NCBI GenBank assembly: GCA_040904565.1
Contig: JBBDTI010000075.1
Coordinates: 170,508-234,507, forward strand
DNA length: 64,000 nt
From: Rhodothermales bacterium
GTDB taxonomy: Bacteria > Bacteroidota > Rhodothermia > Rhodothermales > VXPQ01
Reading direction: 5' to 3'
Positions 36,956-54,810 of the stretch are shown in pieces (the stretch's first letter is position 1; the number at the start of each line of letters is the position of its first letter). The notes beneath the pieces are model-generated. The model searched no databases and was not told where the DNA came from. It worked only from the letters and a program-made list of their open reading frames with translations. A program made the position numbers and the translations under genes.

Positions 36956-39900
36956 TCAGGCCGCGACCTGTTCCGACAGGGCTTCGTCGCCCGATTCCTC
37001 CTCGAGGCGCAGCAGCGCATTGCGATACTCGACCGGCATAACCTTGACGAACTCCTCGAGAGAAGCCTCCCAGTTCTCCAGCACCCAGCGCGCGGTCTTG
37101 CTGTCCGTGTAGCGGTAGTGGTTTTCGACCATTTCACGGAGCTCCGTAATGTCGGCTGGATCGGTGACCTCTTCGAGGTCCACCATCTCGATATTGCACC
37201 TAAGGGTTCTAAACTCCAGGGTTCCGTCGAGCACGTAGGCGACGCCCCCGCTCATCCCCGCCGCGAAATTGCGGCCCGTCGGTCCGAGCACGACGACGCG
37301 CCCGCCCGTCATGTATTCGCAGCCGTGGTCCCCGATACCTTCGACGACGGCACGGACGCCGCTGTTGCGAACGCCGAACCGCTCACCGGCCTGCCCGCGC
37401 ACGTATACCTCGCCGCGCGTCGCACCGTAGAGGGCCACGTTCCCGACGATGATGTTATCGTGAGGCGTGTAGGAAGCTGTTTCGGGCGGACGGATAATCA
37501 GGCGTGCGCCGGAAAGGCCCTTTCCGAAGTAATCGTTTGCATCGCCGCTCAACCGCACCGTGATACCGCGCGCCCCGAACGCCATAAAGCTCTGTCCGCC
37601 CGAACCCGTCATATTCATCCGGATCGTGTCGTCGGGAAGGCCCTTCAGCGGATAGCGCTTGCTGACTTCGGCCGACAGCAACGTGCCGACCGTACGATGA
37701 GTATTGTTGATCTTCACGTCGAACTCCACGGGCTGGCCACGCTGGAGTGCATCCTCCGCCTTCTTGATGAGCAGATGGTCGAGCGCTCGCTCGATGCCGT
37801 GATCCTGCTCGGTCGCGTGAAACTTGCGAAGCGCGGGCGGCACCTCGGCCTTGACGAGGATGGGGGAGAGATCGAGGTGCCGCGCCTTCCAGTGCTTGAC
37901 GCCGGACCGGGCCTTCAGCCGCTGAACCTGTCCGACCATCTCGTCGATCGTCCGAAATCCGAGCTGCGCCATCACCTTGCGCAGCTCCTCCGCCACGAAG
38001 TGGAAGTAATTGATCACGTGCTCCGGCTTGCCCTCGAATTTCTTGCGGAGCTCCGGATCCTGCGTGGCGATGCCGACGGGACACGTGTTGAGGTGACACT
38101 TGCGCATCATGATGCAGCCCATGGCCACCAGCGGCGCCGTGGCAAAGCCGAATTCGTCGGCTCCGAGCAGACAGGCAATCGCCACGTCGCGCCCGGTCTT
38201 TAGCTGGCCGTCACATTCGAGCTTTACGCGGCTGCGGAGGCCGTTCCGCATGAGCACCTGGTGGGCTTCCGAAAGCCCGAGCTCCCAGGGCAGTCCGGCG
38301 TGCATCAGCGAAGTCGCCGGCGACGCGCCCGTCCCGCCGTCATGGCCGGAGATGAGAATTACGTCGGCCTTCCCCTTCGCCACGCCGGCAGCCACCGTGC
38401 CGACACCCACTTCGGAGACCAGCTTGACGGTCACCCGCGCGTCCGGATTCGAATTCTTGAGATCGTGGATGAGCTGCGCCAGGTCCTCGATCGAATAAAT
38501 GTCGTGGTGCGGCGGTGGAGAGATCAGTCCGACGTACGGCGTGGAATGACGCGTCTTGGCGATCCACGGATACACCTTCTCACCGGGCAGCTGACCACCC
38601 TCGCCGGGCTTGGCACCCTGCGCCATCTTGATCTGGATCTCGTCGGCGCTCGTCAGATAGTCGATCGTGACGCCGAATCGTCCGGAGGCCACCTGCTTGA
38701 TGCGGCTCCGCTTCTCACTGTCCCGACGATACCGGCTCGGGTCTTCTCCCCCCTCGCCGGTGTTGTTCTTACCGCCGAGGCGATTCATCGCCACGGCCAG
38801 CGTCTCGTGTACCTCCTGCGAGATGGAGCCGTACGACATGGCGCCCGTCTTGAAGCGCTTTACGATTTCGGTCCACGGTTCTACCTCGTCGAGAGGCACC
38901 GGGTTAACGTCCGCGTCGTCGAATTCCAGCAGGCCGCGCAGCGTACCCAGGGTCTTCGTTTGATCGTTGATCCGCTCGGCGAAATCGTCGTACGTATCGG
39001 GCTGCCCCGAACGCACGGCATGCTGAAGGCGGGCGATCGACATGGGATTGAACATGTGAAACTCGCCGTTGCGACGCCACAGGTATTTCCCGCCCGGCTC
39101 GAGGTCCGTCGCAAAGGATATTTCGACCTCCGGATACGCCTTTCGGTGGCGGATCCGGGCTTCCTCGGCGATGACGTCGAGGCCGATGCCGCCGATCCGG
39201 CTGGCCGTCCCGGCGAAATAGTCGTCGATGACCTCCTGCGAGATGCCGATGGCCTCGAAGATCTGCGCGCCGCGATAGCTCTGCACGGTGGAGATGCCCA
39301 TCTTGGACATCACCTTCAGGATGCCCTTCCCGACGGCCTTGATATACTTTGCCTTCGCCTCGTCGGACGATACGTCTTCGTCTGCCAGGAGGCGCACGAT
39401 GACCTGGAGCGCCAGGTAGGGATTCACCGCGTCGGCTCCATAGCCGATGAGCGCGCAGAAGTGATGCACCTCCCGCGGCTCACCGCTCTCGACGACGATC
39501 GAGGCACGCGTCCGCAACCCTTTTCGGATGAGGTGATGATGTACGGCGCCCGTTGCGAGGAGTGCAGGGATTGCCACCCCATCCGGGCCGGCGCGGCGGT
39601 CGGAGAGCACGAGGACGGAGCGGCCTTCCTCCACCGCCTTTTCCGCCTTTCGGCGGATACCGTCGAGAGCCCCGCGGAGTGCATCCCCGCCACCGTCCGC
39701 ATCGAATATCATGTCCAGCCGTTCGGCCTGGAGCTCGTCGATACCTGAATTCGGCAATCGAGTAAGATCCCGATCCGTCAGTATCGGCTGCTTGAGTATG
39801 AGCTTCCGGCAGTGCTGCGGCGTTTCCTTAAAGAGATCGCGTTCCGACCCGAGCTGCGTAAACAAGGAGGTCACCAGCTCCTCGCGTATAGCGTCGAGAG

Positions 39901-41488
39901 GAGGATTCGTCACCTGCGCGAAGAGCTGGCGGAAGTAATCGTAGAGCAAGCGCGGGTTGTCCGACAGCACCGCGATCGGCGTGTCGTCCCCCATGGAGCC
40001 CAGCACCTCCTTGCCGCGCATCCCCATCGGCTTCATGAGGACGCGCTCGTCTTCCAGCGTATAGCCGAAAAGCTTCTCCCTGGTATGCAGCTCATCCTGA
40101 TCGTACCCCGCCGGCTTACCGTGATCCGGCAGATCCTGGATGTGCACCGTGTTGTCGCGGATCCACTCCCCGTAAGGCCGGCGCGTGGCCAGCCGGGTTT
40201 TGATTTCCTCGTCGCTGATAATTCGATGCTCCTGCAGATCCACAAGAAACATCTTCCCGGGCTGCAGGCGTCCCTTCGACTCGACGTTCGCTGGATCCAC
40301 TCTCAGCACGCCGGTCTCCGACGAGAGAATAACGCAGCCGTCTTTCGTGACCGTGTAGCGCGACGGGCGGAGGCCGTTTCGGTCCAGCACGGCCCCGATG
40401 TACCGGCCGTCCGTGAACGGCAGGGTGGCCGGTCCGTCCCACGGCTCCATCAGGCAGGAATGATACTCGTAGAACGCACGTTTCTCCTCACTCATCTCGT
40501 TCGCATACTCCCACGCTTCCGGCACGAGCATCATCATCGCGTGGGGCAGGGAGCGGCCCGTATGATAGAGCAGCTCGACGGCGTTGTCCAGCACCGCCGA
40601 ATCGCTCTGCCCTTCCGTGAGGATAGGCAGCAGTTTCTTCATGTCGTCCCCGAAAAGATCCGACTCGAAGAGTTCCTGCCGCGCGTTCATCCAGTTGACG
40701 TTCCCGCGCAGCGTGTTGATCTCGCCGTTATGAGAGATAAAGCGGAACGGCTGAGCGAGGCTCCATTGCGGCAGCGTATTCGTCGAGAAGCGAGAGTGAA
40801 CCATGGCGAGCGCGCTCTTCATGAGCGGATCGCTGAGATCGGGATAGTACTCGCCGAGCTGCTCGACGGTCAGCATGCCCTTGTACACGAGCGTACGTGA
40901 GGACAGAGACGGAATGTAGCACGTATCCTTTTGCTTCAGATCCGAGTCCGCAATACTGTGCTCGACGACCTTTCGGATCACGAAGAGCTTGCGCTCGAAG
41001 GCATCCTGATCCTTAACTCCGCGTCCCTTTTCGACGAAGACCTGCCAGATGTCGGGTTCCTGCTGGCGGGACGCCTCTCCCACGCGCGCGTCGTTAGTCG
41101 GTACTCGGCGCCAGCCGATGACCTTCTGGCCTTCGGCCTGAACCACTTCTTCGATTTTTTCTCTGCAGGCGGTGCGCTCGTCGTAGTCCTGCGGCAGAAA
41201 TACGAGTCCGGCCGCATACGATCCCGGCTCCTTCGATCCGGCGCCCAGGTCGTCCAGAATGGATGCAAAAAATTCGTGCGGCAGTTGCATGAGGATTCCC
41301 GTCCCGTCGCCCGTCCGCTCGTCACAGCCACACGCACCGCGGTGCTCCAGGTTGATCAACATTTCGATCCCCTTCTTCACGATATCGTGCGAGGGCGTAT
41401 TCTGTACGTTACAGATAAAGCCTACGCCGCACGCGTCGTGCTCGTAGAAGGAGTCGTACAAGCCTTCGCGAGTACGTGAGTATTGCAT
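36956..41488 (-). CDS. gltB: Glutamate synthase large subunit
   Basis: [47 protein letters not shown] and GXGXG repeats. Confidence 0.97.
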
Positions 41489-41573: not shown

Positions 41574-43265
41574 TCAGGCAGGCGGCATCGCCGATACCGT
41601 CGCCTGCTCCGCTGCGGCACCGCCGCCGGTCGACGCCGTTCTCTTTGCAATCGTAGCTCCTTTTCGCATCAATTCGTAGCGGACGCCGTCGGCGATCGCC
41701 TGCCAGCTCGCCTCCAGAATATTTGCCGAGACGCCCACGGTGCTCCACGTTTCCTCACCGTCGGTATGCTCGACGAGCACGCGCACATAGGCAGCCGTGC
41801 CGTCCTTCGGACTGACGACGCGTACTTTGTAGTCGGTCAGGCGAATGTGCTCGAGACCCGGATAGAAGGCCACGAGCACTTTTCTCAGCGCGTTGGAGAG
41901 CGCATCGACCGGCCCGACGCCTTCGGCGGCGAGCAGCTCGCGATTGCCCTCGACGCTGAGCGCGATCGTTGCTTCGGTGCAGTCCACCCCCTGGTCGTTC
42001 AGCTCGCTCCGTACCCGGAGGCGCTCGAGCGTGAAGAAACTCGTTTCCTCGCCCTGTATCTGCCGGAGCAGCAGTTCGAACGATGCTTCCGCCCCTTCGA
42101 ACTCATAGCCCAGGTGCTCGAGCTCCTTGATGCGCTTGACGGCCCGTGCCGCCTCGTCGTCCTCGCCGAGTTCGAGCCCCAGCTCTTCCGCCTTGTATCG
42201 AACGTTGCTGCGCCCGGAAAGGTCGGAGACGAGGACGCGGCGCTTATTGCCCACTTCGTCCGGCACCAGGTGCTCGTAGGCCCGGGGATCTTTCATCACG
42301 GCCGAGACGTGGATGCCCCCCTTATGGGCGAACGCACTTCGCCCGACGTACGCCGAACGATCGATGGGATCGAGATTGGCGATCTCGTTGACGTAGTGCG
42401 CGAGATCCGTCAGCTCCCGGAGACGATCCGGCGGCACGCAGTCGTAGCCCAGCTTTAGCTGGAGCCCGGGTACGACGGCCGTAAGGTCCGCATTGCCGCA
42501 CCGTTCGCCGATCCCGTTAAACGTCCCCTGAACGTGGCGCGCGCCCGCTTCGACGGCCAGCAGGGTGTTTGCCGTCGCGCAGCCCCCATCATTGTGTGCG
42601 TGGATGCCGAGCGTGGTATCGAAGCTCTCGCGGACGTCGGCCATGACCGGAGCGATCTGATTGGGCAGCGTGCCGCCGTTGGTGTCGCAGAGAACCAGCA
42701 CGTCCGCGCCGGCATCGGCCGCAGCTCTCAGCGTCTCCAGTGCATACTCCCGATCTTCGAAATAACCGTCGAAGAAATGCTCCGCATCGTAAATAACGCG
42801 GCGACCGTGCGAGCGCAGGTACTCGATGGAGGAATGAATGAGGTCCAGGTTTTCGTCCTTCGAGACCCCGAGGGCCACTTCCACGTGCAGCGTCCAGCTT
42901 TTACCGAACAGGGAGACGACGGACGTATCGGCCGCCAGCATGGCCTGAAGATTGGGATCGTCTTCCGGCGCGTACTGGACGCGTCGCGTCGAACCGAACG
43001 CGCAGATCTTGGCCGTCTCCCACTCCACGTCCCGGGCCATTTCGAAGAACTCCTGATCCTTCGGATTCGAGCCCGGCCAGCCGCCCTCGATAATGTGAAC
43101 CCCGAACCGGTCCATACGCCGCGCAATCTGCAGTTTGTCGTGCGCCGTCATCGTGACGTGCTCGCCCTGCGTACCGTCTCTCAGCGTCGTATCGAAGAGC
43201 TCTATCGCTCTGCTCTCGGTGGAATGCGTGGAAGAATTGGCCATGGGTTGTCGTCTTTCATTCAA
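41574..43265 (-). CDS. cimA: Citramalate synthase
   Basis: DTTLRDGTQGE, EGGWPGSNPKD, FGKSW, YDAEHFFDG and AFAHKGGIH motifs. Alternative start at 43244. Confidence 0.9.
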   Translation of the reverse strand: MNERRQPMANSSTHSTESRAIELFDTTLRDGTQGEHVTMTAHDKLQIARRMDRFGVHIIEGGWPGSNPKDQEFFEMARDVEWETAKICAFGSTRRVQYAPEDDPNLQAMLAADTSVVSLFGKSWTLHVEVALGVSKDENLDLIHSSIEYLRSHGRRVIYDAEHFFDGYFEDREYALETLRAAADAGADVLVLCDTNGGTLPNQIAPVMADVRESFDTTLGIHAHNDGGCATANTLLAVEAGARHVQGTFNGIGERCGNADLTAVVPGLQLKLGYDCVPPDRLRELTDLAHYVNEIANLDPIDRSAYVGRSAFAHKGGIHVSAVMKDPRAYEHLVPDEVGNKRRVLVSDLSGRSNVRYKAEELGLELGEDDEAARAVKRIKELEHLGYEFEGAEASFELLLRQIQGEETSFFTLERLRVRSELNDQGVDCTEATIALSVEGNRELLAAEGVGPVDALSNALRKVLVAFYPGLEHIRLTDYKVRVVSPKDGTAAYVRVLVEHTDGEETWSTVGVSANILEASWQAIADGVRYELMRKGATIAKRTASTGGGAAAEQATVSAMPPA

Positions 43266-43314
43266 TGCCGTGGACTGCCTGTATGCGCGGCGACCCGGTC
43301 GGTCGCCCGACGCA

Positions 43315-43878
43315 TCACGTCGGCATGAGGCCGGCGCGGCGCGCGTATTCGAAGACGTTGCCGGCTTCGAGAATGTCGGCCACGTCGCCGAGCGGCTTGA
43401 GCAGGTATTCTTCGCCGGTCGTATGGTTGGTCAGCTTGCCGACGGACGTATCGATCTCCAGGTCGTCGCCGGTGCGCACCCGTTCGACGAGCCGCTCGAT
43501 CGACTCGAACGGCACGACAAAGCCCCCATCGACGGCGTTTCGATAGAAGATCCTGGCGTAGCTCTCCGCTACGACGGCCTTACACCCCGCTTGCTGCAGG
43601 GCGAAGGGAGCGTGTTCTCGCGACGATCCGCAGCCGAAATTAGATCCGCCCACGATGATCGCGTACTCGCTCTCGAAGGCCTCTTCCTCCGTAAACGGCT
43701 TGCCGCCGTACGGAAGTCCTTGCTGATCCGTCGGCACGCCGCTCAGCGCGAAGCGTCCGTAAAACTTCTTCTCCTCGGGATCGGAGAGGCTGTAGACGAG
43801 GTGCTCGGCCGGAATAATCTGGTCCGTGTCGATCGCGTCTCCCAGCACGTAGGCCTTTCCTTTAATGATGTCCTGCAT
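43315..43878 (-). CDS. leuD: 3-isopropylmalate dehydratase small subunit
   Basis: [23 protein letters not shown] and ARIFYRN motifs. Confidence 0.92.
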
Positions 43879-43926
43879 GTCGTCTCCCTTCTCTCCTGAA
43901 TCTACAAACTGTGCATCGGCGCCGGT

Positions 43927-45219
43927 TTAGACGAGCACCTCGCGGGGGTCCGTGATGACGCCGGCAACCGCCGAGGCGGCTACCGTGAACGGCGAGGCTA
44001 GGTACACCGACGCATTCTTCGACCCCATTCGACCCGGGAAATTCCGGTTCGTGGTCGATATCACGACCTCCGTACCGTGCGTGCGTCCGAACGTGTCCGT
44101 CGGGCCGCCCAGGCAGGCAGCACAGGAAGCCTGACCGAGCTTGCAACCGGCCCGCTCGAAGATATCGTAGAGCGTCTCCCCGTCTACCCGCGTCGTATGC
44201 AGCTCGTTGCCAATATGGGTCGTCGCCGGCACGATGTACGTATCCACCCGCACTTCCTGTCCTTTGAGGATTCTGGCGGCCGCCACGAAGTCTTCCAGCT
44301 TGCCGCCCGTGCAGCTGCCCACGTAGGCACGGTCGAGCCGGGTGCCGACAACTTCCGAGACGGTAGCCTTGTTATCCGGACTGTGAGGCTTGGCCACGAG
44401 CGGCTCCATCTCCTCGACGTTGTACGTCTTGAACGTATGGAAGCGTGCGTCGTCGTCGCCGTAGACGGCCTCGAACGGGGCGTCCGTCCGGGCGCGCACG
44501 TACTCGAACGTCTTCTCGTCGGGCGGTATGATTCCGTTCTTTCCGCCGGCTTCGATGGCCATGTTCGTCAGCGTCATTCGCTCGTGAACGGGCAGATCGA
44601 AGACGGCTTGTCCGTCGAACTCGAGAGCGCGGTACGTACCGCCGTCCGTGCCGATGTCGCCGATGACCTGCAGGATGAGATCCTTGGCCATCAGATACGG
44701 CGGCAGCGTCCCTTCGAAGACGAACTTCATCGTCTCGGGGACTTTCACCCACATCTTGCCCGTCCCCAGGATCAACGCCGCATCGGTGTTCCCCACACCC
44801 GTGGAGAACATCCCGAACGCCCCCGAGGTGCAGCTGTGGCTGTCCGTGCCGACGAGCAGCGAGCCGGGACGGTTGAAGCCTTCCTCGGCCAGCGCCATGT
44901 GGCATACACCTTTATAGTTCGGCGTACCCGGATCGTAGTAGTAGGGCAGGTCGTGCTCCGCCGCAAACTCGCGGAGTATCTCCACGTTGCGGTTCGCGTG
45001 GTGGTTTTTCGTGAAGATATAGTGGTCGGGTATGATGACCAGCTTCTCCTTGTCCCACGGCACGGCATGTTCGCCGAACTCGCGCTTGAAGATGTCGATC
45101 GTGGGCGGTCCGCAGACGTCGTGCGTCATGAGGATGTCCACGTCGACCCAGATATTGTCGCCTGGTGCCACGCGCTCGCGCCCGGCATGCCGGGCCAGTA
45201 TTTTTTCGGTAATCGTCAC
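43927..45219 (-). CDS. leuC: 3-isopropylmalate dehydratase large subunit
   Basis: MTITEKIL, DSH, GSCTGG, CAACLG and TTNRNFPGRMG motifs; overlaps the leuA stop. Confidence 0.92.
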   Translation of the reverse strand: MTITEKILARHAGRERVAPGDNIWVDVDILMTHDVCGPPTIDIFKREFGEHAVPWDKEKLVIIPDHYIFTKNHHANRNVEILREFAAEHDLPYYYDPGTPNYKGVCHMALAEEGFNRPGSLLVGTDSHSCTSGAFGMFSTGVGNTDAALILGTGKMWVKVPETMKFVFEGTLPPYLMAKDLILQVIGDIGTDGGTYRALEFDGQAVFDLPVHERMTLTNMAIEAGGKNGIIPPDEKTFEYVRARTDAPFEAVYGDDDARFHTFKTYNVEEMEPLVAKPHSPDNKATVSEVVGTRLDRAYVGSCTGGKLEDFVAAARILKGQEVRVDTYIVPATTHIGNELHTTRVDGETLYDIFERAGCKLGQASCAACLGGPTDTFGRTHGTEVVISTTNRNFPGRMGSKNASVYLASPFTVAASAVAGVITDPREVLV

Positions 45220-46826
45220 GCTGTTCCCCCCTGAAATGACCTCATGATTCCGTTTCCGACAAACGCCATGTTCTCTTCGTCGGAGCGATAGGCTTCCAGA
45301 TGGTTGAGCGCATTGATATAGGCATCGGCGGACGCCTGGATCACGTCCGTATGCTGGGCTCGCCCCTTGAAGTAAGCCCCGTTCTCACCAACCAGCACGG
45401 TCACCTCGCCGATCGCGTCGGCGCCTTCCGAAACGGATCGGATGGAGTAACTCTCCAGCTCGTGGGTGCTCCCAACGGCGTGGTTGATCGCACGGTAGAC
45501 GGCGTCGACCGGACCGTCCCCCGTTCCGCGCTCCTTGCGCCGTTCCCCGGTCCGGGTGTAGAGCACCTCCACCTCCGCCTCGGGCTGCCGGCCCGTGCCG
45601 ACCGACACGGACATGTTCTCGAGGGTATAATGTGGATGCACGGCGTGCTCCTCATTGCCGCGCACGAGATGAACGAGATCCTCATCGAAGATCTCCTTCT
45701 TCCTGTCCGCCAGCTGAACGAAGAGCCTGTAGAGCGTATCCTTCCGGCTCTCTTCGACCTCCAGGCCCAGCCGCTCGAGGCGGCTGAAGAATCCGTGGCG
45801 GCCGGAGTGCCGGCCCAACCGGATCTGCTCCGCGGTCTGTCCAACCTCCGCCGCCTGCATGATCTCGTAAGTATCCCGCCGCTTCAACACCCCGTGCTGG
45901 TGAATTCCGGCTTCGTGGCTGAAGGCGTTCCGTCCCACGATGGCCTTATTGGGCGGCACGGGAAAGCCCGTCGCGACGGAGACCATCTTACTCGTCTCGG
46001 TCAGGTAGGTGGATTCGATGCCGGTATCCACGCCGAACTGTTCACCGCGCACGCGGAGTGCCATGACGACCTCTTCGAGCGCGGCGTTGCCGGCACGCTC
46101 GCCGATGCCGTTGACGGTGCATTCGATCTGGCGCGCTCCGGCACGTACGGCCGCTATCGAATTGGCCACGGCCAGTCCGAGGTCGTCGTGGCAATGGGCG
46201 GAAAGCACGACGTCCGCGCCGTCGGGGATGCAGTCCCACGCGGCCTCGAACATCGCCGCGTACTCGTTCGGGGTACAGTAACCCGTCGTATCCGGAATGT
46301 TGATGGTCGTCGCGCCAGCCTCCACGGCCGCTCCGATGACCTCGCATAGAAAGGCGTGATCGGTACGACCGGCATCCTCGGCACTGAATTCGACGTCGTC
46401 GGTAAACGCGCGGGCCAGCTCCACCGCCTCGCGCGCCATGCGTACGATCGTGTTGCGCTTGGCCTTCAGTGTTTTACCGAACTTCGCTTCACCGAACTTC
46501 GCGTCGATGTGGATGTCGCTCGTGGCGATGAAGGTGTGGATGCGCGTCTTTTCCCCTCCGGCAAGCGCCTTGCCGGCCGCTTCCACGTCGCTCTCGAGCG
46601 CCCGCGCCAGCCCGCAAATCACGGGCCCTTTCACGTCGCGCACGATGCGCGCCACGGCTTCAAACTGGCCGGGAGAGGAAATGGGGAATCCCGCCTCGAT
46701 AACGTCCACCTTCAGCTTGGCCAGCTGCTCGGCAATCCGGACTTTCTCCGGAACGGTCATCGACGCTCCGGGAGCCTGTTCCCCGTCGCGCAGCGTCGTG
46801 TCAAAAATGAATACGTGGTCTTTCAT
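45216..46826 (-). CDS. leuA: 2-isopropylmalate synthase
   Basis: [38 protein letters not shown] and a C-terminal regulatory domain. Confidence 0.95.
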
Positions 46827-46990
46827 GAGATCAGGTCATCGACATTCTTGCATTGAGCTACTGGCAGGGCTCCAGACGGCATCCGGACGCGCGGACGGTG
46901 AACCGTCCTGCCCTTGTTGCGCCGGATGCGCCGTAAGTCGAAGTCGCTCCCGATACACGGCACCTCTGCCTGAGCGGCGTACATACGCAT

Positions 46991-47061
46991 CGTTCATGGC
47001 GTCTCGGTCGGTCGCTATCACGTTCATGGCGAAGCTGCTGGTGGCGAGGCTATTCATGACG
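46991..47061. repeat. Three 11-bp motifs at exact 30-bp spacing
   Basis: CGTTCATGGCG at 46991 and 47021; TATTCATGACG at 47051. Confidence 0.7.
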
Positions 47062-48154
47062 GTATCTTCTCTGCGGCGGATACATGCTCGGCAATGCGGC
47101 GCCCTACGTCCTTTGTCCCAACCGCCGGGTGGAGGTCGTCGGCGATGTCGGCCGTTCGCATTCCGCTCGACAGCACGGCCTCGACGCCTTCTCGCACGGA
47201 GGCCGCGGCTTCCGCTTCCTGCCAGTGGTCCAGCATCATGGCCGCACTCAAGACGGCCGCGATCGGATTCGCAACGCCCTTGCCGGCAATATCCGGTGCA
47301 CTGCCGTGCACCGGCTCAAAAAGTCCGACCCGCCCGCCTACGCTGGCCGACGGCAAGAGTCCAAGTGAACCCGGAAGGGTGGCCGCTAGATCCGAAAGGA
47401 TGTCACCGAACAGATTTCCGGTGACGATCACGTCGAAATCAGAGGGCCGCCGAACGATCTGCATGGCCGCATTGTCGACGTAGAGATGATCGAGCTCCAC
47501 GTCGGAAAAAGACGCTTCGTGCACCCGCGCGACCACGTCGCGCCACAGCCGGGAGACGTCGAGCACGTTCGCCTTATCGACCGACGTTACGCAGCCGCGG
47601 CGGCGGCGCGCCCAGTCGAACGCAACGCGCGCGATGCGCTCCACCTCGTGCTCGGCATACCGCATCGTATTGAACGCCTCCTCTTCCTCGGTCGATATAC
47701 GTCCTTTCGGCTCGCCGAAGTAAATGCCGCCGGTCAGCTCGCGGACGATCAACATGTCCGTTCCGGCGACGCTGCTTCGCCGTAAGGGGGACGAGTCCAG
47801 GAGCGCATCCGGCACGGACACGGGCCGCAGGTTGGCATACACGCCGAGCTCCTTCCGAAGTCGGAGCAGGCCGGCCTCCGGCCGCTGATCGCCCGTCCGG
47901 TCGTCCCACCGGGGCCCACCGACGGCACCAAGCAACACGCCGTCGGATGCCTTGCAGGCCTCCAGTGTCGACGCCGGAAGGGGCGTGCCGTCCGCGTCGA
48001 TAGCCGCTCCGCCGGCGCGATGCTCCTCTACCTCCAGCTGAAAACCGTAGCGGATTCCCGCCTGTTCGAGCACGCGCAGCGCTTCTTCCGTCACCTCACG
48101 CCCGATCCCATCTCCGGGAAGCCACGCAATACGATATGTCGTCTTGCTACCCAT
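47054..48154 (-). CDS. leuB: 3-isopropylmalate dehydrogenase
   Basis: LPGDGIG.EV, VRELTGGIYFG, DKANVL, NLFGDILSD and EPVHGSAPDIAG motifs. Confidence 0.95.
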   Translation of the reverse strand: MGSKTTYRIAWLPGDGIGREVTEEALRVLEQAGIRYGFQLEVEEHRAGGAAIDADGTPLPASTLEACKASDGVLLGAVGGPRWDDRTGDQRPEAGLLRLRKELGVYANLRPVSVPDALLDSSPLRRSSVAGTDMLIVRELTGGIYFGEPKGRISTEEEEAFNTMRYAEHEVERIARVAFDWARRRRGCVTSVDKANVLDVSRLWRDVVARVHEASFSDVELDHLYVDNAAMQIVRRPSDFDVIVTGNLFGDILSDLAATLPGSLGLLPSASVGGRVGLFEPVHGSAPDIAGKGVANPIAAVLSAAMMLDHWQEAEAAASVREGVEAVLSSGMRTADIADDLHPAVGTKDVGRRIAEHVSAAEKIPS

Positions 48155-48160
48155 GCGCTT

Positions 48161-49213
<1,053 letters not shown>

Positions 49214-49298
49214 TTAGTGGTAGGGTCAAATGGTGGGCTTCAGATCGCGGCCGCGACGGAATCCGGTACGCCGCGCCGACCGAGCATAGGCAGGCCGG

Positions 49299-49877
49299 TC
49301 AGTCGCCAAAATGCAGGGCGCGGTGCATGGCAACGCGCCCGCTTCGAGCCATCTCCTCGATGCCGTGCTGTCGCATCATCCCGATGAAGGCGTTGATCTT
49401 CTTCGACGGTCCGGTCAGTTCGAACGTCATGGTATCGGGCGTGACGTCGACGACCTTCCCGCGGAAGATGTCGAGCGTATCCATCATCTCCGAGCGGTTC
49501 TGTTTGGTATAGCTCACTTTCAGCAAGCACAGCTCGCGTTCGACGTGTTCATTCGATGTCAGGTCGATCACCTCGAGCACGTCGACGAGGCGATTGAGCT
49601 GTCGGTTCACCTGCGCGATGATCCGATCGTCCCCCGTCGTCACGATGGTCATGCGGGAGATGGTCGAGTCGTCCGTCTCACCTACCGTGACACTCTCGAG
49701 GTTGAACCCGCGCGCGGAGAACAGGTTGATCACGCGGTTCAGCGCGCCGATCGTATTTTCGAGACGTACGGCGATGATGTGCCGATGCTCGTGCTTCTTT
49801 TCACCCGATTCGATCGGCTCGCCCTGAGCCTTCTTCCGGATGATCTGCTGTGGCGTTAAAGTGCTCGTGTCAGCCAT
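49299..49877 (-). CDS. ilvN: Acetolactate synthase regulatory subunit
   Basis: LEN..GALNRV..LFSARGFNLESVTV ACT domain, ERELCL and EMARSG motifs. Confidence 0.94.
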   Translation of the reverse strand: MADTSTLTPQQIIRKKAQGEPIESGEKKHEHRHIIAVRLENTIGALNRVINLFSARGFNLESVTVGETDDSTISRMTIVTTGDDRIIAQVNRQLNRLVDVLEVIDLTSNEHVERELCLLKVSYTKQNRSEMMDTLDIFRGKVVDVTPDTMTFELTGPSKKINAFIGMMRQHGIEEMARSGRVAMHRALHFGD

Positions 49878-49901: not shown

Positions 49902-51701
49902 TTAAACGAACGCGTTCGGCGTGAGGCGCTTCGTAATCATCTCATCCGTCGACGCACCGGAGGGCACCATCGGGAAGACCATTTCTTCCTTGATGACCCG
50001 GAACTCCATCACCACGGGGCGATCGTTGACCTCCCAGGCTTGCTTGATGATCTCGTCGACCTCCTCGGGCTTCTCGGCCCGCAGTCCGACGCAGTGATGC
50101 GCCTCGGCCAGCTTGACGAAGTCCGGGTTCGTCTCCGTCAGATCCGTGTGACTGAATCGCTCCTCGTGAAACAGCTCCTGCCACTGGCGCACCATGCCGA
50201 GAAAGTTGTTGTTGATGACGACGATTTTGAGAGGCAGCTTGTGCGCGGCCGCCACGCTCAACTCCTGCGCGTTCATCACGAAACCGCCGTCGCCGTTGAT
50301 GGACACGACCGTACGGCCCGTCCCCCTCAACCCGAACGCGGCACCCATGGCCGCAGGCAGGCAGAATCCCATCGTTCCGAGTCCACCCGACGTAATGTGG
50401 GAACGAGGATGGATGAACCGTCCGTACTGGGCGGCCCACATCTGATGCTGCCCGACATCCGTCACCGTAACGGCCTCGCCCTTTGATTGCTCGCGGATGC
50501 GCTGCAGGACGTACTGTGCACGCAGCCGGCCGTCATCCTGATCGTACTCGAGAGGTGCCTTTTTTCTCCACGCATCGATCTGCTGGAGCCATGCGTCCGT
50601 ATCGCCGGCTTCTACGAGAGGCTCCAGCCGCTCGAGCGCGTCACGCGTATCGCCGACGATGGCGCAATCCACGTACACGTTCTTCGAGATGCTCGACGGG
50701 TCGATATCCATATGGATGATCTTTGCGTGCGGCGCCCACGATTCGAGCTTGCCCGTAACCCGATCGTCAAATCGTGCGCCGACGGCAATGATCAGGTCCG
50801 AGTTCTGCACGGCCATATTCGCGTACCACGTTCCGTGCATGCCGAGCATGCCCAGCGAAAGTTCATCGTCCTCCGGAAAGGCACCCAATCCATGTAGCGT
50901 CGTCGTGACGGGTATGCGAGTCTTTCGCGCCACCTTCGTCAGGATTTCGGAGGCATCACCACCAACGGTCCCTCCACCTACGTAAAACAGCGGCTTCTTC
51001 GCTTCAGCCATCATGCCTGCCGCACGGCGAATCTTGTTCTCGGCTCCGTGGGCCGTAAACGAATAGCCGCGAAGATCGACATCTTCGGGATACACGAACT
51101 CCGTCTCATCCAGCAGGACATCCTTCGGCAGATCCACGACCACGGGTCCGGGCCGCCCCGTGCGCGCTATATGGTAGGCATGCTTCACCGTCCTGGCCAG
51201 GTCCTTCACGTCCCGCACCAGAAAGCTGTGCTTCGTGATGCTGCGGGTAATGCCGATCGTGTCGCACTCCTGAAACGCGTCGTTCCCGATGAGGTGGGTG
51301 GGCACCTGCCCGGTGAACACGACGATAGGCACGGAATCCAGGTAGGCGTCGGCGATACCCGTAACCGTGTTGGTGGCGCCGGGCCCGCTCGTCACGAGCA
51401 CGGTGCCGACCTTTCCGGTCGCCTTCGCGTAGCCCTCGGCGGCGTGCGTGCCTCCCTGCTCGTGTCGGACGAGCACGTGCTCGAAATCCGGCTTGATGCG
51501 CGCCATCTCGTCGTAAATCTTGATGACCGCACCGCCCGGATGCCCGAATACCACCTCGACGCCCTCAGCGTCCAGGGAGCGTAGAAAAATCTCCGCGCCG
51601 CTCATGCGTTTCGATCCGTTGACGGATGTCCGAGCCTGCTCGATACCGTCTTCTCTCGTCTCAGGCATGGACTTGGTCGTTGTGTTCTGGTCGTCTTTCA
51701 T
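49902..51701 (-). CDS. ilvB: Acetolactate synthase large subunit
   Basis: PGGA, RHEQG, TSGPGATN, DVGQHQMW and GDGG...NN ThDP motif. Start taken at ATG 51701. Confidence 0.94.
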   Translation of the reverse strand: MKDDQNTTTKSMPETREDGIEQARTSVNGSKRMSGAEIFLRSLDAEGVEVVFGHPGGAVIKIYDEMARIKPDFEHVLVRHEQGGTHAAEGYAKATGKVGTVLVTSGPGATNTVTGIADAYLDSVPIVVFTGQVPTHLIGNDAFQECDTIGITRSITKHSFLVRDVKDLARTVKHAYHIARTGRPGPVVVDLPKDVLLDETEFVYPEDVDLRGYSFTAHGAENKIRRAAGMMAEAKKPLFYVGGGTVGGDASEILTKVARKTRIPVTTTLHGLGAFPEDDELSLGMLGMHGTWYANMAVQNSDLIIAVGARFDDRVTGKLESWAPHAKIIHMDIDPSSISKNVYVDCAIVGDTRDALERLEPLVEAGDTDAWLQQIDAWRKKAPLEYDQDDGRLRAQYVLQRIREQSKGEAVTVTDVGQHQMWAAQYGRFIHPRSHITSGGLGTMGFCLPAAMGAAFGLRGTGRTVVSINGDGGFVMNAQELSVAAAHKLPLKIVVINNNFLGMVRQWQELFHEERFSHTDLTETNPDFVKLAEAHHCVGLRAEKPEEVDEIIKQAWEVNDRPVVMEFRVIKEEMVFPMVPSGASTDEMITKRLTPNAFV

Positions 51702-51835
51702 ACTGATACGCTGATCCTGGCGTGGATGCTCTCCGTGAGGTTGCTTGCACTGGGTAACGATGCATCCGACCCATCGTCGAAAAGCGACGTTCCCTTCCAC
51801 CACCGGGGCGCGCTGTGCTCCCGGTCGCCGGCATT

Positions 51836-52032
51836 CAATAAATAATTACAGGGGGGCCGCATCGGCTTCGCGGGCGTCGTCTGAGGGCCAACCCCTCAAC
51901 GTCCGTCTGATGCCTGATTGCACACCTGGAGAAATGCTAGGGGATTGACCGGGGGACTTAGCCCGAAATAATAATAAGGCTAACAAGGAGGACGACCGCT
52001 AGAAGCCGTCCACTACGTACAAGGTCAATCCC
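51836..52032 (-). promoter_or_regulatory. Transcription attenuator with alternative helices 1:2, 2:3, 3:4 upstream of ilvB
   Basis: Transcript segments: seg1 GGGAUUGACC (52032-52023), seg2 GGUCAAUCCC (51950-51941), seg3 GGGGUUGGCC (51895-51886), seg4 GGCCCCCCU (51858-51850), then GUAAUUAUUUAUU. Confidence 0.7.
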
Positions 52033-52119
52033 TGAAAGGACCCGCGCGTCCACATTGATCCGCTCGACGCCACACCGCTTGATGGCGCTGACTGCGATAT
52101 GTGACTGCGGATAATACAT
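51958..52119 (-). CDS. Branched-chain amino acid operon leader peptide (IlvL-like)
   Basis: 53-codon ORF absent from the ORF track, ending RLLAVVLLVSLIIISG-TAA. 11 of 13 consecutive codons are Leu/Val/Ile. Start is ATG 52119 or GTG 52053. Confidence 0.75.
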   Translation of the reverse strand: MYYPQSHIAVSAIKRCGVERINVDARVLSGIDLVRSGRLLAVVLLVSLIIISG

Positions 52120-52463
52120 GCTCGTGTGCGTGTGACGTGGTACTGCGCTGAAGGTCCTGCGTCAGGTGTGTCCAAGAACGTTAATCCTAACGCGCTCGTC
52201 AAGTGATAGATCGGGCAATTAATCAAGTCCCCCCACAGAGAGGGGCTCTCCTCGGTAGCGCTTACAGTTTACTTATATAGTTTATATCTGATATATACCT
52301 CTCTTTTTCAGTCTCTTAAGACAGCTACCCTAATACTATTATCTGCCAGGTCACTAGCTGGGGCTCGATCCGCCTTCCATTTCATGCTATCTTCACCTCT
52401 ATCCACCTCGGGGCGCCGGCCCAAAGAGCCTTCACATACGCTTCACCGGCATTCACTGGCCTA

Positions 52464-52506
52464 AAAAGCGCTTTTACGCACGCCGCCAAAATTGAAAGCG
52501 CTTTTA
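52464..52506. promoter_or_regulatory. Two LacI/GalR-type palindromic operators
   Basis: AAAAGCGCTTTT (52464-52475) and TGAAAGCGCTTTTA (52493-52506); centres 30 bp apart. Confidence 0.6.
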
Positions 52507-52541
52507 TTATTCGAGGTATTGAACTGTTTGTGCTCTTATCC

Positions 52542-52560
52542 TTAACATTGCAAGTGTTAA
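52542..52560. promoter_or_regulatory. Palindrome TTAACA-N7-TGTTAA upstream of amt
   Basis: Perfect 6-bp inverted arms ending 45 nt before the amt ATG. Confidence 0.45.
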
Positions 52561-52605
52561 TCCGGATTTCGCCTTAATTCTTTAGGCCATAACGAGATCA
52601 CACTT

Positions 52606-54000
52606 ATGATACGCGCAATACTCCTAGCCCTTGTCCTCGCCGTGGCGGCACCCGTCGCGGCTTTTCCCACCGCACCGGCATCCCCTGCACCGCAAGAGCA
52701 GGTCGAAGGCGCCGATGCCATGACGGAGGCGCCTCCTGAGGAAGCGCCGGTCGAAGTCGCTCAGGCACCCGATACGCAGGCGAATCTCGACTTCGTCTGG
52801 ACGATCCTGGCGGCCGTACTGGTCTTCTTCATGCAGGCCGGATTCGCCCTCGTAGAGACGGGCTTCACGCGGTCGAAGAACGCCGTGAACATCATCATGA
52901 AGAATTTCATGGATGTATCCGCGGGCGCACTCGTGTTTTTCACGGTCGGGTTCGGACTGATGTTCGGGACCACGGCCGGCGGTTGGATCGGAACGGACGG
53001 CTTCTTCCTGGCCGGACTCGCTGACGATCCGTGGACGTGGGCCTTCTTCCTGTTCCAGGCCGTGTTCGCCGCCACCGCGGCGACGATCGTGTCCGGTGCC
53101 GTGGCCGAGCGGACGAAGTTCACGGGCTACCTCATCTTCTCCGTCCTGATCACGGCGTTCATCTACCCCGTCTTCGGTTCGTGGGCGTGGGGCGGCCTGT
53201 TCAACGGCGCAGGATGGCTCGAGGCCCTCGGCTTTATCGACTTCGCCGGGTCCACCGTGGTGCACTCCGTGGGCGCATGGGCCGCGCTGGCCGGTGCCCT
53301 CGTCGTCGGGCCGCGCGTGGGCAAGTACGACGAGCACGGCAAGCCGCGGCACATCGCGGGGCACAGCCTTCCGCTCGCCGCACTCGGCGTGTTTATCCTC
53401 TGGTTCGGATGGTTCGGCTTCAACGCCGGTTCCACCACCGCCGGTACGGTTGACATCGCACTGATCGCCTTGAATACGTTCCTCGCCGCGGGCGCAGGAG
53501 CCACCGCGTCAATGATCACCACGTGGATCCGAAACGGCAAACCCGACGCTCCCCTGACGCTGAACGGCGTGCTGGGCGGACTCGTCGGCATCACGGCCGG
53601 GTGCGCGAACCTCTCGCCCGGATTCGCCATCATCACGGGAGCGATCGCCGGTGTCATCGTCGTCTATTCGACCATGCTGCTCGATAAATTCGTCGACGAC
53701 GCCGTAGGCGCCATCACGGTTCACGGCGTGTGCGGAGCGTGGGGAACGCTTGCTGCCGGACTCTTCAATGCCGGCAACATGTTCGACATGAGCATCGTGA
53801 GCGTGCAGCTGATCGGTATCGCTGCCGCCTTCCTGTGGACCTTCCCGGTCAGCTTCGTGCTGTTCAAGCTCATCGATTCGATCGTCGGACTGCGCGTCAA
53901 CGGGCAGCTCGAAGAGATCGGACTCGATCTCCACGAGCACGACAACCAGGCCTATCCGGAGTTTCTGCCGGAGGACGAGCTTTCGCTCTCCGAGGTCTAA
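52606..54000 (+). CDS. amtB: Ammonium transporter
   Basis: FMQAGFALVE, DFAGSTVVH (His), LWFGWFGFNAGS, DDAVGAITVHG (His) and EEIGLD motifs. Confidence 0.95.
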   Translation: MIRAILLALVLAVAAPVAAFPTAPASPAPQEQVEGADAMTEAPPEEAPVEVAQAPDTQANLDFVWTILAAVLVFFMQAGFALVETGFTRSKNAVNIIMKNFMDVSAGALVFFTVGFGLMFGTTAGGWIGTDGFFLAGLADDPWTWAFFLFQAVFAATAATIVSGAVAERTKFTGYLIFSVLITAFIYPVFGSWAWGGLFNGAGWLEALGFIDFAGSTVVHSVGAWAALAGALVVGPRVGKYDEHGKPRHIAGHSLPLAALGVFILWFGWFGFNAGSTTAGTVDIALIALNTFLAAGAGATASMITTWIRNGKPDAPLTLNGVLGGLVGITAGCANLSPGFAIITGAIAGVIVVYSTMLLDKFVDDAVGAITVHGVCGAWGTLAAGLFNAGNMFDMSIVSVQLIGIAAAFLWTFPVSFVLFKLIDSIVGLRVNGQLEEIGLDLHEHDNQAYPEFLPEDELSLSEV

Positions 54001-54024
54001 TCCGCACCCACCCAAACGTACCGC

Positions 54025-54056
54025 GCCCGCTCCGCCGAAAGCCCGGCGGAGCGGGC
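54025..54056 (+). terminator. 13-bp GC-rich hairpin between amt and the porin gene (weak terminator or mRNA stabiliser)
   Basis: GCCCGCTCCGCCG-AAAGCC-CGGCGGAGCGGGC with no immediate U-tract. Confidence 0.55.
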
Positions 54057-54114
54057 CTGCGGTTTCGAGATCGACCCTGCCTGTCATTCCATAAACATAG
54101 ATCACACGCTTACA

Positions 54115-54810
54115 ATGAAAAAACTTCTTACCATCGGTACACTCCTGATTACGGTAGCCATCATGACCGGCGTTTCGACACCGGTTGCCGCTCAGGACGT
54201 CAGCCTCGGTGCCGACGTGGTCAGCCGCTATGTCTGGCGCGGCACGGACTTCGGTGAATCAGCCAGCATCCAGCCATCCCTGTCGTTCAACTCGGGTGGA
54301 TTTGAAGTCGGCACGTGGGCCTCCTACGCCGTCAGTCCGGTCTCGGCCGGACTCAACGAACACGACATCTGGGTCGGCTATACGGCCGGTCCGGTGTCGG
54401 TCGGCGTGACGGACTATTACTTCCCGGCACCCGGCGGGAGCGGCTTCTTCGATTTCGATAATGGAGAAGGCGCGCATACGCTCGAACCGTACGTCGCCTT
54501 CGGCGGCACGGAAACCTTTCCCGTATCGCTGTTTGCCGGTTACCTGGCCTACAACGACCCGGACAACTCACTCTACCTGAATGCGTCCGTACCGTTCGCC
54601 GTGAGCGGTGTGGATATGTCGTTCGGCGTAGGTGCCTCTGCCGGCGAAAGCGGTTGGTACGGAACGGATGGCTTCGCCATCATCGACGTGGCACTGACGG
54701 GCTCCAAAAGTATTCCGATCACGGACTCCTTCGAGCTGCCCGTCTTCGTGCAGTACGTGCTGAACCCCGATGCCGAACGAACCTTCCTGGTCTTCGGCGT
54801 CTCGCTCTAG
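54115..54810 (+). CDS. Putative outer-membrane porin (TorF/TIGR02001-like)
   Basis: Signal peptide; ADVVSRYVWRG.DFG....IQP....GGFEVGTWAS; TDYYFP; beta-strand C-terminus LVFGVSL. Confidence 0.7.
   Translation: MKKLLTIGTLLITVAIMTGVSTPVAAQDVSLGADVVSRYVWRGTDFGESASIQPSLSFNSGGFEVGTWASYAVSPVSAGLNEHDIWVGYTAGPVSVGVTDYYFPAPGGSGFFDFDNGEGAHTLEPYVAFGGTETFPVSLFAGYLAYNDPDNSLYLNASVPFAVSGVDMSFGVGASAGESGWYGTDGFAIIDVALTGSKSIPITDSFELPVFVQYVLNPDAERTFLVFGVSL

Follow-up and report, generated by a model that had tools for sequence, protein, structure and literature searches.

The 64,000-nt stretch of DNA analyzed here (the window; positions 170,508 to 234,507 of contig JBBDTI010000075.1, from a Rhodothermales bacterium) carries a structured RNA leader in front of its ilv-leu-cimA operon. 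We consider it fairly probable that this leader is a ribosome-read sensor of leucine, isoleucine and valine whose output is translational: a leader open reading frame (ORF) would gate a second, upstream ORF (uORF2) that relays ribosomes to ilvB by coupling, possibly with help from transcription termination. A wider proposition, which we regard as evenly balanced, is that the leader represents an undescribed, order-wide family of branched-chain amino acid (BCAA) leaders in the Rhodothermales. Members of this family would act as translational attenuators, the burial of a start codon in a helix depending on how a peptide of ~50 residues is read through a three-way junction. In the window’s family the signal would be passed on by way of a relay ORF. 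The comparison set consisted of the ilvB loci of 30 relatives together with 80 public records (loci are numbered L below), and a covariance model recovered 53 distinct leader sequences. Comparing these sequences and their predicted folds, we could demonstrate the leader ORF, a set of alternative helices, an ATG held in one of them (helix P) and the extent of uORF2.

Evidence for a Translated Leader ORF

The leader ORF (51958..52119; all features are on the minus strand unless marked otherwise) starts with ATG and has 53 codons followed by TAA. Its product, MYYPQ...GIDLVRSGRLLAVVLLVSLIIISG, has the tail LLAVVLLVSLIIISG, and an alternative in-frame GTG start at 52053 would give 31 residues. Neither this product nor that of uORF2 matched an NCBIfam family. 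Leucine, isoleucine and valine account for 14 of the last 25 codons, and the C-terminal run of Leu/Val/Ile codons, LLAVVLLVSLIII (51967..52005), consists of rare codons within a conserved tail. From segment 1 (seg1; see below) onward, all four Ile codons are ATT and the Leu codons are four CTT, one CTA and one CTC, while the three Ile codons before seg1 are all ATC, the common codon. For reference, in ten genes of the window ATT makes up 15% of Ile codons and CTT and CTA make up 7% and 2% of Leu codons, with a third-position G+C content of 0.79.

The BCAA-rich tail is found at a fixed distance 5′ of ilvB all through the window’s family and in several other Rhodothermales families. Among the last 14 leader residues, 6–12 are Leu, Ile or Val in all 53 distinct related sequences, and in all 53 the leader stop lies 5–10 nt 5′ of segment 2 (seg2), so that a terminating ribosome could mask seg2. 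The start and the frame are also shared: in genera g1–g6, an in-frame ATG gives 51–58 residues in 5/5 sequences, and seg1 reads GGG-AT(T/C/G) and keeps to the frame of the leader ORF in 35 of the 36 sequences in which it occurs. The distance from seg1 to the stop takes 14 distinct values between 48 and 117 nt, every one of them a multiple of 3. Genus g8 (12 species) has ORF lengths of 135, 144 and 147 nt and equal variation at all three codon positions, suggesting conservation of the frame but not of the peptide, as expected of a leader peptide. These comparisons give good support to a translated leader ORF rich in BCAA codons.

Competition of Two Segments for a Third

Seg1 (GGGATTGACC, 52023..52032), which encodes Gly-Ile-Asp(-Leu), is the exact reverse complement of seg2 (GGTCAATCCC, 51941..51950), located 7 nt 3′ of the leader stop. 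Seg2 can pair either with seg1 (the 1:2 helix) or with segment 3 (seg3, GGGGTTGGCC, 51895-51886), with which it forms 10 bp including two G-U pairs (the 2:3 helix). When seg1 and seg2 pair, they close a three-way junction with two further hairpins. The first, Hx (51990..52011), was identified from folds and comparison and lies within the ORF between seg1 and the BCAA run; its arms vary in sequence among relatives and keep their complementarity, as judged by eye and from folds. The second, Hy (51958..51983, TTAGCC...GGCTAA), holds three ATT codons in its loop and the stop codon in its 3′ arm, and all 6 of its pairs are present in L001–L003, L005 and L054. The seg1-to-seg2 domain has a predicted energy of -36.3 kcal/mol (z -3.4 against shuffles), and z values from -3.4 to -5.6 were obtained for the junction in 9/10 lineages.

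The 2:3 helix was recovered, with 10 pairs, as the RNAalifold consensus on plain MAFFT alignments that were not fitted to structure, in which compensatory changes affected 2/10 pairs in 21 sequences and 4/10 pairs in 23 sequences. When the 53 distinct sequences are aligned with a model, pairing is kept in 98.5% of cells and both sides have changed in half of the 10 pairs, a result reached by none of 500 shuffles. Seg1 was found 54–132 nt 5′ of the stop in all lineages but g8, where its place is taken by a hairpin joining Pro-Gly-Leu codons to the sequence just 3′ of the stop. Ungapped counting of the 1:2 helix gave an invariant 7-bp core with register shifts beyond it, and covariation for 1:2 is thin because this core is near-invariant. 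Concerted change was seen in seg1, seg2 and seg3 together in L149 and L154, and in seg1 and seg2 in L035. Competition of seg1 and seg3 for seg2 is supported by these sequence patterns. As for the control codons, seg1 itself carries Ile-Asp-Leu-Val alone, and the main run lies 18–65 nt downstream, between seg1 and seg2. L042 has a short version with the Leu run directly after seg1, which is the classical geometry.

A preliminary description of this region had proposed a BCAA leader ORF, four alternatively pairing segments and a U-rich tract, and all of these are present when the minus strand is read. The atypical AT-ending codons to which it drew attention are indeed rare (ATT, CTT and CTA) in the ten window genes and are used from seg1 on. 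Its perfect 1:2 pairing, with seg2 7 nt after the stop, and its alternative 2:3 helix of 10 bp with two G-U pairs are both exact; seg1, seg2 and seg3 are conserved among relatives, and 2:3 shows compensatory changes. It had also suggested looking for conservation of the codon run and for covariation across the leaders of relatives, and both were found, the first in 53/53 sequences (6–12 Leu, Ile or Val in the last 14 residues) and the second clearly in 2:3 and thinly in 1:2.

A Start Codon Within the Seg3 Domain

Seg3 is contained in a local hairpin (51882..51898; TGAGGG, loop GTTGG, CCCTCA) with a pair probability of 0.93. This hairpin forms the tip of a long, irregular hairpin, the P-domain (51849..51928; base CAGG:CCTG, predicted -31.1 kcal/mol), whose 3′ strand includes the ATG of uORF2. 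Within the P-domain, helix P joins a conserved 5′ arm, GCATC (51909..51913), to a conserved 3′ arm, GATGC (51859..51863), which holds this ATG (51862-51860). The 2:3 helix and the P-domain are mutually exclusive in predicted folds.

The stem of the seg3 hairpin differs between lineages and stays complementary, with 5/7 pairs double-changed. For helix P and the seg3 hairpin together, 93.2% of cells pair in 24 distinct sequences and 10/13 pairs are double-changed, which none of 500 shuffles reached, and slid controls gave at most 55% pairing. These helix P counts come from R2, a model of the OFF structure. With default filters R2 returned mostly its own training set, and with filters off at E ≤ 1 it added six off-site or antisense matches, because of which the counts were retaken at E ≤ 0.085.

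The position of the ATG is also maintained: in 44/53 sequences, counting from where seg3 starts, the first ATG falls between +17 and +35. In several lineages the helix-P ATG is the start codon of a structural gene. It is the IlvD start in L134 and L139, where the NCBIfam alignments begin at residue 1 and residue 5, and eight further sequences have an IlvD N-terminus there; in L149, L154, L157 and L158 it is the IlvB start. Genus g10, one record of which is Rhodothermus sp., has an outer helix, TTCACAGG:CCTGTGAGG, in all 7 of its sequences, and the GAGG immediately 5′ of the ilvB ATG is paired in it.

Since the conserved partner of seg3 is a hairpin inside an ATG-pairing helix, the conserved output looks translational, and the conserved output element would be occlusion of a start codon. 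In the phylum Bacteroidota, initiation is reported to proceed largely without Shine-Dalgarno pairing, so start-codon occlusion would suit it better than occlusion of a Shine-Dalgarno sequence. As a separate observation, the helix-P ATG of L140 (G109) has become ATA, the opposite arm has changed to match (GGTATCC:GGATACC), and ilvD starts 25 nt further on; judging from this one sequence, helix P seems to have been kept there though it no longer holds a start codon.

uORF2 and Its Proposed Link to ilvB

From the helix-P ATG of the window, uORF2 (51698..51862) runs for 54 codons to a TGA (51700-51698) that overlaps the ilvB ATG (51701-51699) as ATGA. The same overlap occurs in L003 and L005, whereas in L002 the two ORFs are 4 nt apart and in L004 20 nt. 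In g8, uORF2 and ilvB overlap by 8 nt in 10/12 species, and the remaining two have gaps of 3 and 22 nt. Throughout family f1, wherever the ATG is not the gene start, the ORF ends at most 34 nt from the ilvB ATG (17/17) and in 13 cases overlaps it. In all five of the other lineages that could be judged, an ORF of 20–69 residues beginning at the helix-P ATG ends 15–34 nt 5′ of ilvB. Summed over 17 related sequences, the spacer contains 4 stops in the frame of uORF2 vs 16 and 37 in the other frames.

ORFs of this type encode 20–85 residues, their peptide sequences are unrelated, and only their extent is conserved. As far as these alignments indicate, the conserved properties of the relay ORF in the window’s family would thus be two, the sequestering of its ATG and the overlap of its stop with the start of ilvB. 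We have moderate confidence that uORF2 is a relay whose translation, gated by the switch, would hand ribosomes to ilvB, to which it may be translationally coupled.

Distribution Across Relatives

To describe the occurrence of the leader, we used R1, a covariance model reaching from the peptide tail to seg3. It found one copy in the window’s genome. Among 151 sampled Rhodothermales genomes, 54 had a match, distributed over 28 of 73 genera and always with one copy per genome; loci were fetched for 50 of these 54 genomes. In a phylum-wide sample, R1 matched 7/12 genomes of the order and 0/139 Bacteroidota outside it. It returned nothing significant in 70 other ilvB loci, among them 14 further Rhodothermales loci for which the flank was limited to 1.5 kb, as well as loci of Balneolales and Smithella (best E values 0.23 and 0.43). 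Rfam, whose families include ilvB-OMG, leader families and the ppGpp and T-box riboswitches, gave no match at gathering scores over the whole 64 kb, none in 51500-52600 at E ≤ 10, and none at E ≤ 1 in 8 diverse related leaders.

Other BCAA-rich uORF tails, ...IIILIIDLLIGIL and ...VLVLVVVVLTGSAALYL, were seen 5′ of ilvB in Balneolales/Cyclonatronaceae loci (L074–L076) and in Smithella/Syntrophales loci (L072, L073, L077–L079, L083 and L088). Given that R1 has no match among them, they look like separate leader families. In some Rhodothermales families the leader precedes ilvD, with ilvB ~1.9 kb further downstream (L137 (G028) and L139 (G025), as compared with L023 and L019), which is why no leader stands directly 5′ of ilvB in those loci. 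A literature search, outside of which Lopatovskaya et al. (2010) fell, returned nothing joining Rhodothermus with a regulatory leader peptide and nothing on the Rhodothermales, in line with the earlier remark that no description was known from this lineage.

Proposed Mechanism

We propose that the leader ORF (~53 codons) would be translated through seg1, Hx and the rare Leu/Val/Ile run to a stop 7 nt before seg2. With no stalled ribosome (the OFF state), either seg1 and seg2 would form the three-way junction or the terminating ribosome would cover seg2; seg3 would then form its own hairpin in the P-domain, and the ATG at 51862-51860 would be paired. When BCAA-tRNA is scarce (the ON state), a ribosome would stall on or near seg1 and seg2 would pair with seg3. 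The P-domain would thereby be blocked and the ATG exposed, and uORF2 would be translated, its ribosomes passing to ilvB at the ATGA. This passage could also suppress termination, either at the U-rich tract 51848-51837 or by Rho. In the modeled folds, the free leader RNA adopts 1:2 together with the P-domain (-67.4 kcal/mol), and 2:3 forms when a ribosome footprint is placed on seg1 or the A site is placed at CTT 52005.

Several observations weigh against this reading, the first of them from the same models. With a ribosome reading one of the last ATT codons or the stop in its A site, the P-domain re-forms and there is no switch, so that sterics, queued ribosomes or kinetic effects must be invoked for stalls at the last Ile codons. 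The long C-terminal run might act through any of these, and on thermodynamics alone only the early control codons are predicted to act. Of the ribosome masking and stalling put forward in the preliminary description, masking of seg2 is thus allowed by the stop position in 53/53 sequences, while stalling switches the modeled structure for early codons only.

Other points concern the structures themselves. Both model-based alignments had been built to fit the very structures that were then counted: the 53-sequence alignment leans towards 2:3, and the 24-sequence alignment of helix P has some visibly mis-fitted rows. Helix P of the window has just 5 bp (GCATC:GATGC), next to a G-G mismatch, and in the window’s predicted fold the ATG pairs in another register, with 51921-51916 (GCAATC). 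An anchored test of ATG pairing gave a modest result: 59% of 39 sequences had a helix of 6 bp or more, as did 24% of 544 control ATGs. Taken as a whole, the 296-nt stretch is no stabler than its shuffles (z -0.41). Genus g8 has no conserved seg1, and R1 has no match in 97/151 Rhodothermales genomes. With regard to uORF2, the other frames of the spacer are not crowded with stops either (the 16 and 37 given above), the ORF stops earlier in L015 and L011, and L012 and L013 need a second ATG. Finally, terminator-like signals are present in the window, in L005 and in g8, and in the window termination may contribute or even dominate.

Transcription Termination and Other Explanations

This last point bears on the explanation that we take most seriously after our own, namely that the leader is a classical transcription attenuator. 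The terminator would then be made up of the P-domain (51928-51849) and the U-rich tract. The 2:3 helix would serve as antiterminator and either 1:2 or a ribosome positioned on the stop codon as anti-antiterminator, and uORF2 and the paired ATG would be incidental in the window. In keeping with this, the hairpin of -31.1 kcal/mol ends directly at the U-rich tract TAATTATTTATT (51837..51848, uORF2 codons 5–9), a possible point of intrinsic termination, and the 2:3 helix would exclude the P-domain. A similar arrangement occurs in L005, the only locus among g1–g6 with a U-rich tract at a comparable position. In g8 (L006–L018), a canonical hairpin followed by TATTTT lies ~125–150 nt after the leader stop, inside uORF2 codons ~12–20, and its stem differs between species with complementarity kept. 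However, the g8 terminator forms in predicted folds with or without 2:3, and the base of the window’s hairpin, 4 bp (CAGG:CCTG) beside an internal loop, is weak for an intrinsic terminator. A hairpin-plus-U signal was absent between the stop and the gene in 9 of the 14 leaders scanned (L002, L003, L004, L006, L020, L054, L035, L042 and L043), the sole match of L043 lying beyond the ilvB start. In many lineages a terminator would not fit, since the structural gene begins 5–20 nt after the seg3 hairpin, and the sequence after this hairpin is A/C-rich rather than U-rich. We consider classical attenuation unlikely.

The terminator scan of the window itself gave one terminator-like match, which is hairpin Hx inside the leader ORF. 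Among 22 sequencing runs, the single RNA run contains 0.12 of the sampled words, in the form of contigs, which do not reveal where transcripts end. A different terminator, formed by seg3 and segment 4 (seg4, GGCCCCCCT, 51850..51858), had been suggested in the preliminary description, and we rejected it as a conserved element. All 8 of its pairs, with a 2-nt bulge, are present in the window and at most 4/8 in 22 relatives, and enforcing it costs 7.4 kcal/mol relative to the minimum free energy structure, with a pair probability of ~0. Seg4 is not conserved and belongs to the 3′ strand of the P-domain in the predicted fold. The accompanying analogy with ilvL/ivbL attenuation holds for the leader ORF and for the competition between seg1 and seg3; it does not extend to the terminator, which is unsupported, or to the geometry, since most control codons lie between seg1 and seg2.

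Rho-dependent attenuation would dispense with an intrinsic terminator. Here, the post-peptide leader would be free of ribosomes for 150–400 nt, Rho would load on C-rich, G-poor RNA after seg3, and ilvB would initiate without coupling. The RNA after the seg3 hairpin does appear C/A-rich and G-poor in several lineages (by eye), the leaders are long and most of them have no intrinsic terminator, and ilvB starts within A-rich sequence. Yet this explanation accounts neither for the constant position of the ATG in helix P nor for an ORF that ends at the ilvB start, and in lineages whose ilvD or ilvB begins immediately after the hairpin there is no space ahead of the gene for Rho to act, so that it strikes us as improbable. 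It is hardly credible that the ORF is untranslated, its BCAA-rich frame being the by-product of a U-rich, structured RNA that works like a riboswitch or binds a protein: although the peptide is not conserved outside its tail, the codon positions vary equally in g8 and several codons are also under pairing constraint (seg1, Hx and Hy), such an RNA would leave unexplained the in-frame seg1 (35/36) with its 14 distances in multiples of 3, the stop always 5–10 nt before seg2, the onset of rare codons at seg1 and the in-frame ATG at 51–58 codons in 5/5 g1–g6 genomes, and neither the window nor the 8 diverse relatives matched Rfam.

Operon and Genomic Setting

The translational sensor that we favor would stand before an operon of eight genes. 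The first structural gene is ilvB (49902..51701), encoding the acetolactate synthase large subunit (NCBIfam TIGR00118, 783.7 bits), with its start set by the overlap with uORF2. It is followed by ilvN (49299-49877), ilvC (48161-49192), leuB (47054-48154), leuA (45216-46826), a leuC-type gene (43927-45219), a leuD-type gene (43315-43878) and cimA (41574-43265), all assigned from NCBIfam and ORFs, so that ilvN to cimA spans 41574..49877. The gap of 227 nt between leuB and leuA (46827-47053) was checked for a second leader, and neither a BCAA-rich tail nor a leader-like uORF was found there. It is associated with an ORF of 55 codons (MRMYAAQ..., 46823-46990) whose TGA overlaps the leuA ATG as ATGA, a stop-start overlap of the same kind as that of uORF2 and ilvB. 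A glutamate synthase large subunit of 1510 residues (36956-41488; domains GATase_2, Glu_syn_central, Glu_synthase and GXGXG) is encoded on the same strand, 85 nt 3′ of cimA.

Upstream of the leader ORF, the AT-richest 40-mer (52269..52308, 80% A+T, at -350 from the end of the leader stop) is a candidate promoter region. A scan of the minus strand returned no promoter-like or consensus site, and Bacteroidota-type TAnnTTTG and TTGAC-type patterns were missing upstream in 11 of the 12 leaders scanned. Divergent from the leader, at 52606-54810 on the plus strand, are genes for an ammonium transporter (amt family), transcribed from 52606, and a TorF-family putative porin, and the AT-rich intergenic region at ~52260-52340 is common to them and to the ilv leader.

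Relation to Known Systems and Significance

To our knowledge, nearly all known leader-peptide control of amino-acid operons works by terminating transcription, and it comes from Proteobacteria, Actinobacteria and some Firmicutes. The enterobacterial BCAA leader-peptide attenuators are ivbL-ilvBN, ilvL-ilvGMEDA and leuL. Like ivbL, ilvL and leuL, the Rhodothermales leader has an ORF packed with codons for the end products, rare control codons, mutually exclusive 1:2 and 2:3 helices, and a stop positioned to mask seg2. It differs from them in the length of the peptide (~50 vs 14–32 residues) and in the placement of most control codons between seg1 and seg2, inside a three-way junction. In addition, its counterpart of the 3:4 structure is a hairpin with an ATG-pairing helix and no conserved U-tract terminator, a second ORF lies between the switch and the gene, and the lineage is Rhodothermales (Bacteroidota). 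The principle of such BCAA attenuators is set out in PMC1183508.

The proposed output is closer to that of the erm and cat resistance genes. Translational attenuation of ermC is mentioned in PMC2965389, and ermB has been reported to depend on two leader peptides (PMC8274638). As in these systems (ermC, ermB), we propose that a stalled leader ribosome re-pairs the mRNA and frees the initiation region of the next ORF, and the two leader peptides of ermB loosely resemble the proposed relay from leader to uORF2. In contrast to the drug-bound ribosome of erm and cat, the signal in the Rhodothermales would be scarce charged tRNA at Leu, Ile and Val codons, and the target is a biosynthetic operon. 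The erm and cat leaders mainly occlude the Shine-Dalgarno box, whereas the Rhodothermales leader would occlude the start codon itself.

Leaders of BCAA genes have also been described outside the enterobacteria. In the actinobacterial LEU element 5′ of leuA (Seliverstov et al., 2005, PMC1262725), a pseudoknot includes pairing of the Leu codons themselves with the Shine-Dalgarno box. This element shares with the present leader a predicted peptide with a Leu run and a structure that pairs the initiation region of a BCAA-pathway gene, while in the Rhodothermales a separate three-segment switch (1:2, 2:3, and hairpin plus helix P) would control the ATG, the two being compared here by description. 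The ilvB-II, ilvB-OMG and ilvB RNA motifs, from Corynebacterium, Leptospira and assorted phyla, have been described as transcription attenuators with BCAA-rich uORFs (Narunsky et al., 2023, PMC10272879). They too are conserved, structured ilvB leaders, from which we set the Rhodothermales leader apart by description and by the lack of any Rfam match in the window or in 8 leaders at E up to 1–10. Within the Bacteroidota, “strong clues” of leader-peptide attenuation before amino-acid operons have been noted in Flavobacterium psychrophilum (PMC9723704).

The Rhodothermales leader offers a well-conserved example whose conserved output element is a paired start codon. If our reading is true, it would constitute a new RNA family, as no Rfam model matches it, and it would mean that ribosome-sensed control can be built without a terminator. 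Gene calls would be corrected as well, since annotation can easily overlook or misplace the leader ORF, uORF2 and the start of ilvB at 51701. The leader would also offer a way to study how translation starts and is coupled in a phylum that initiates by rules unlike those of E. coli.

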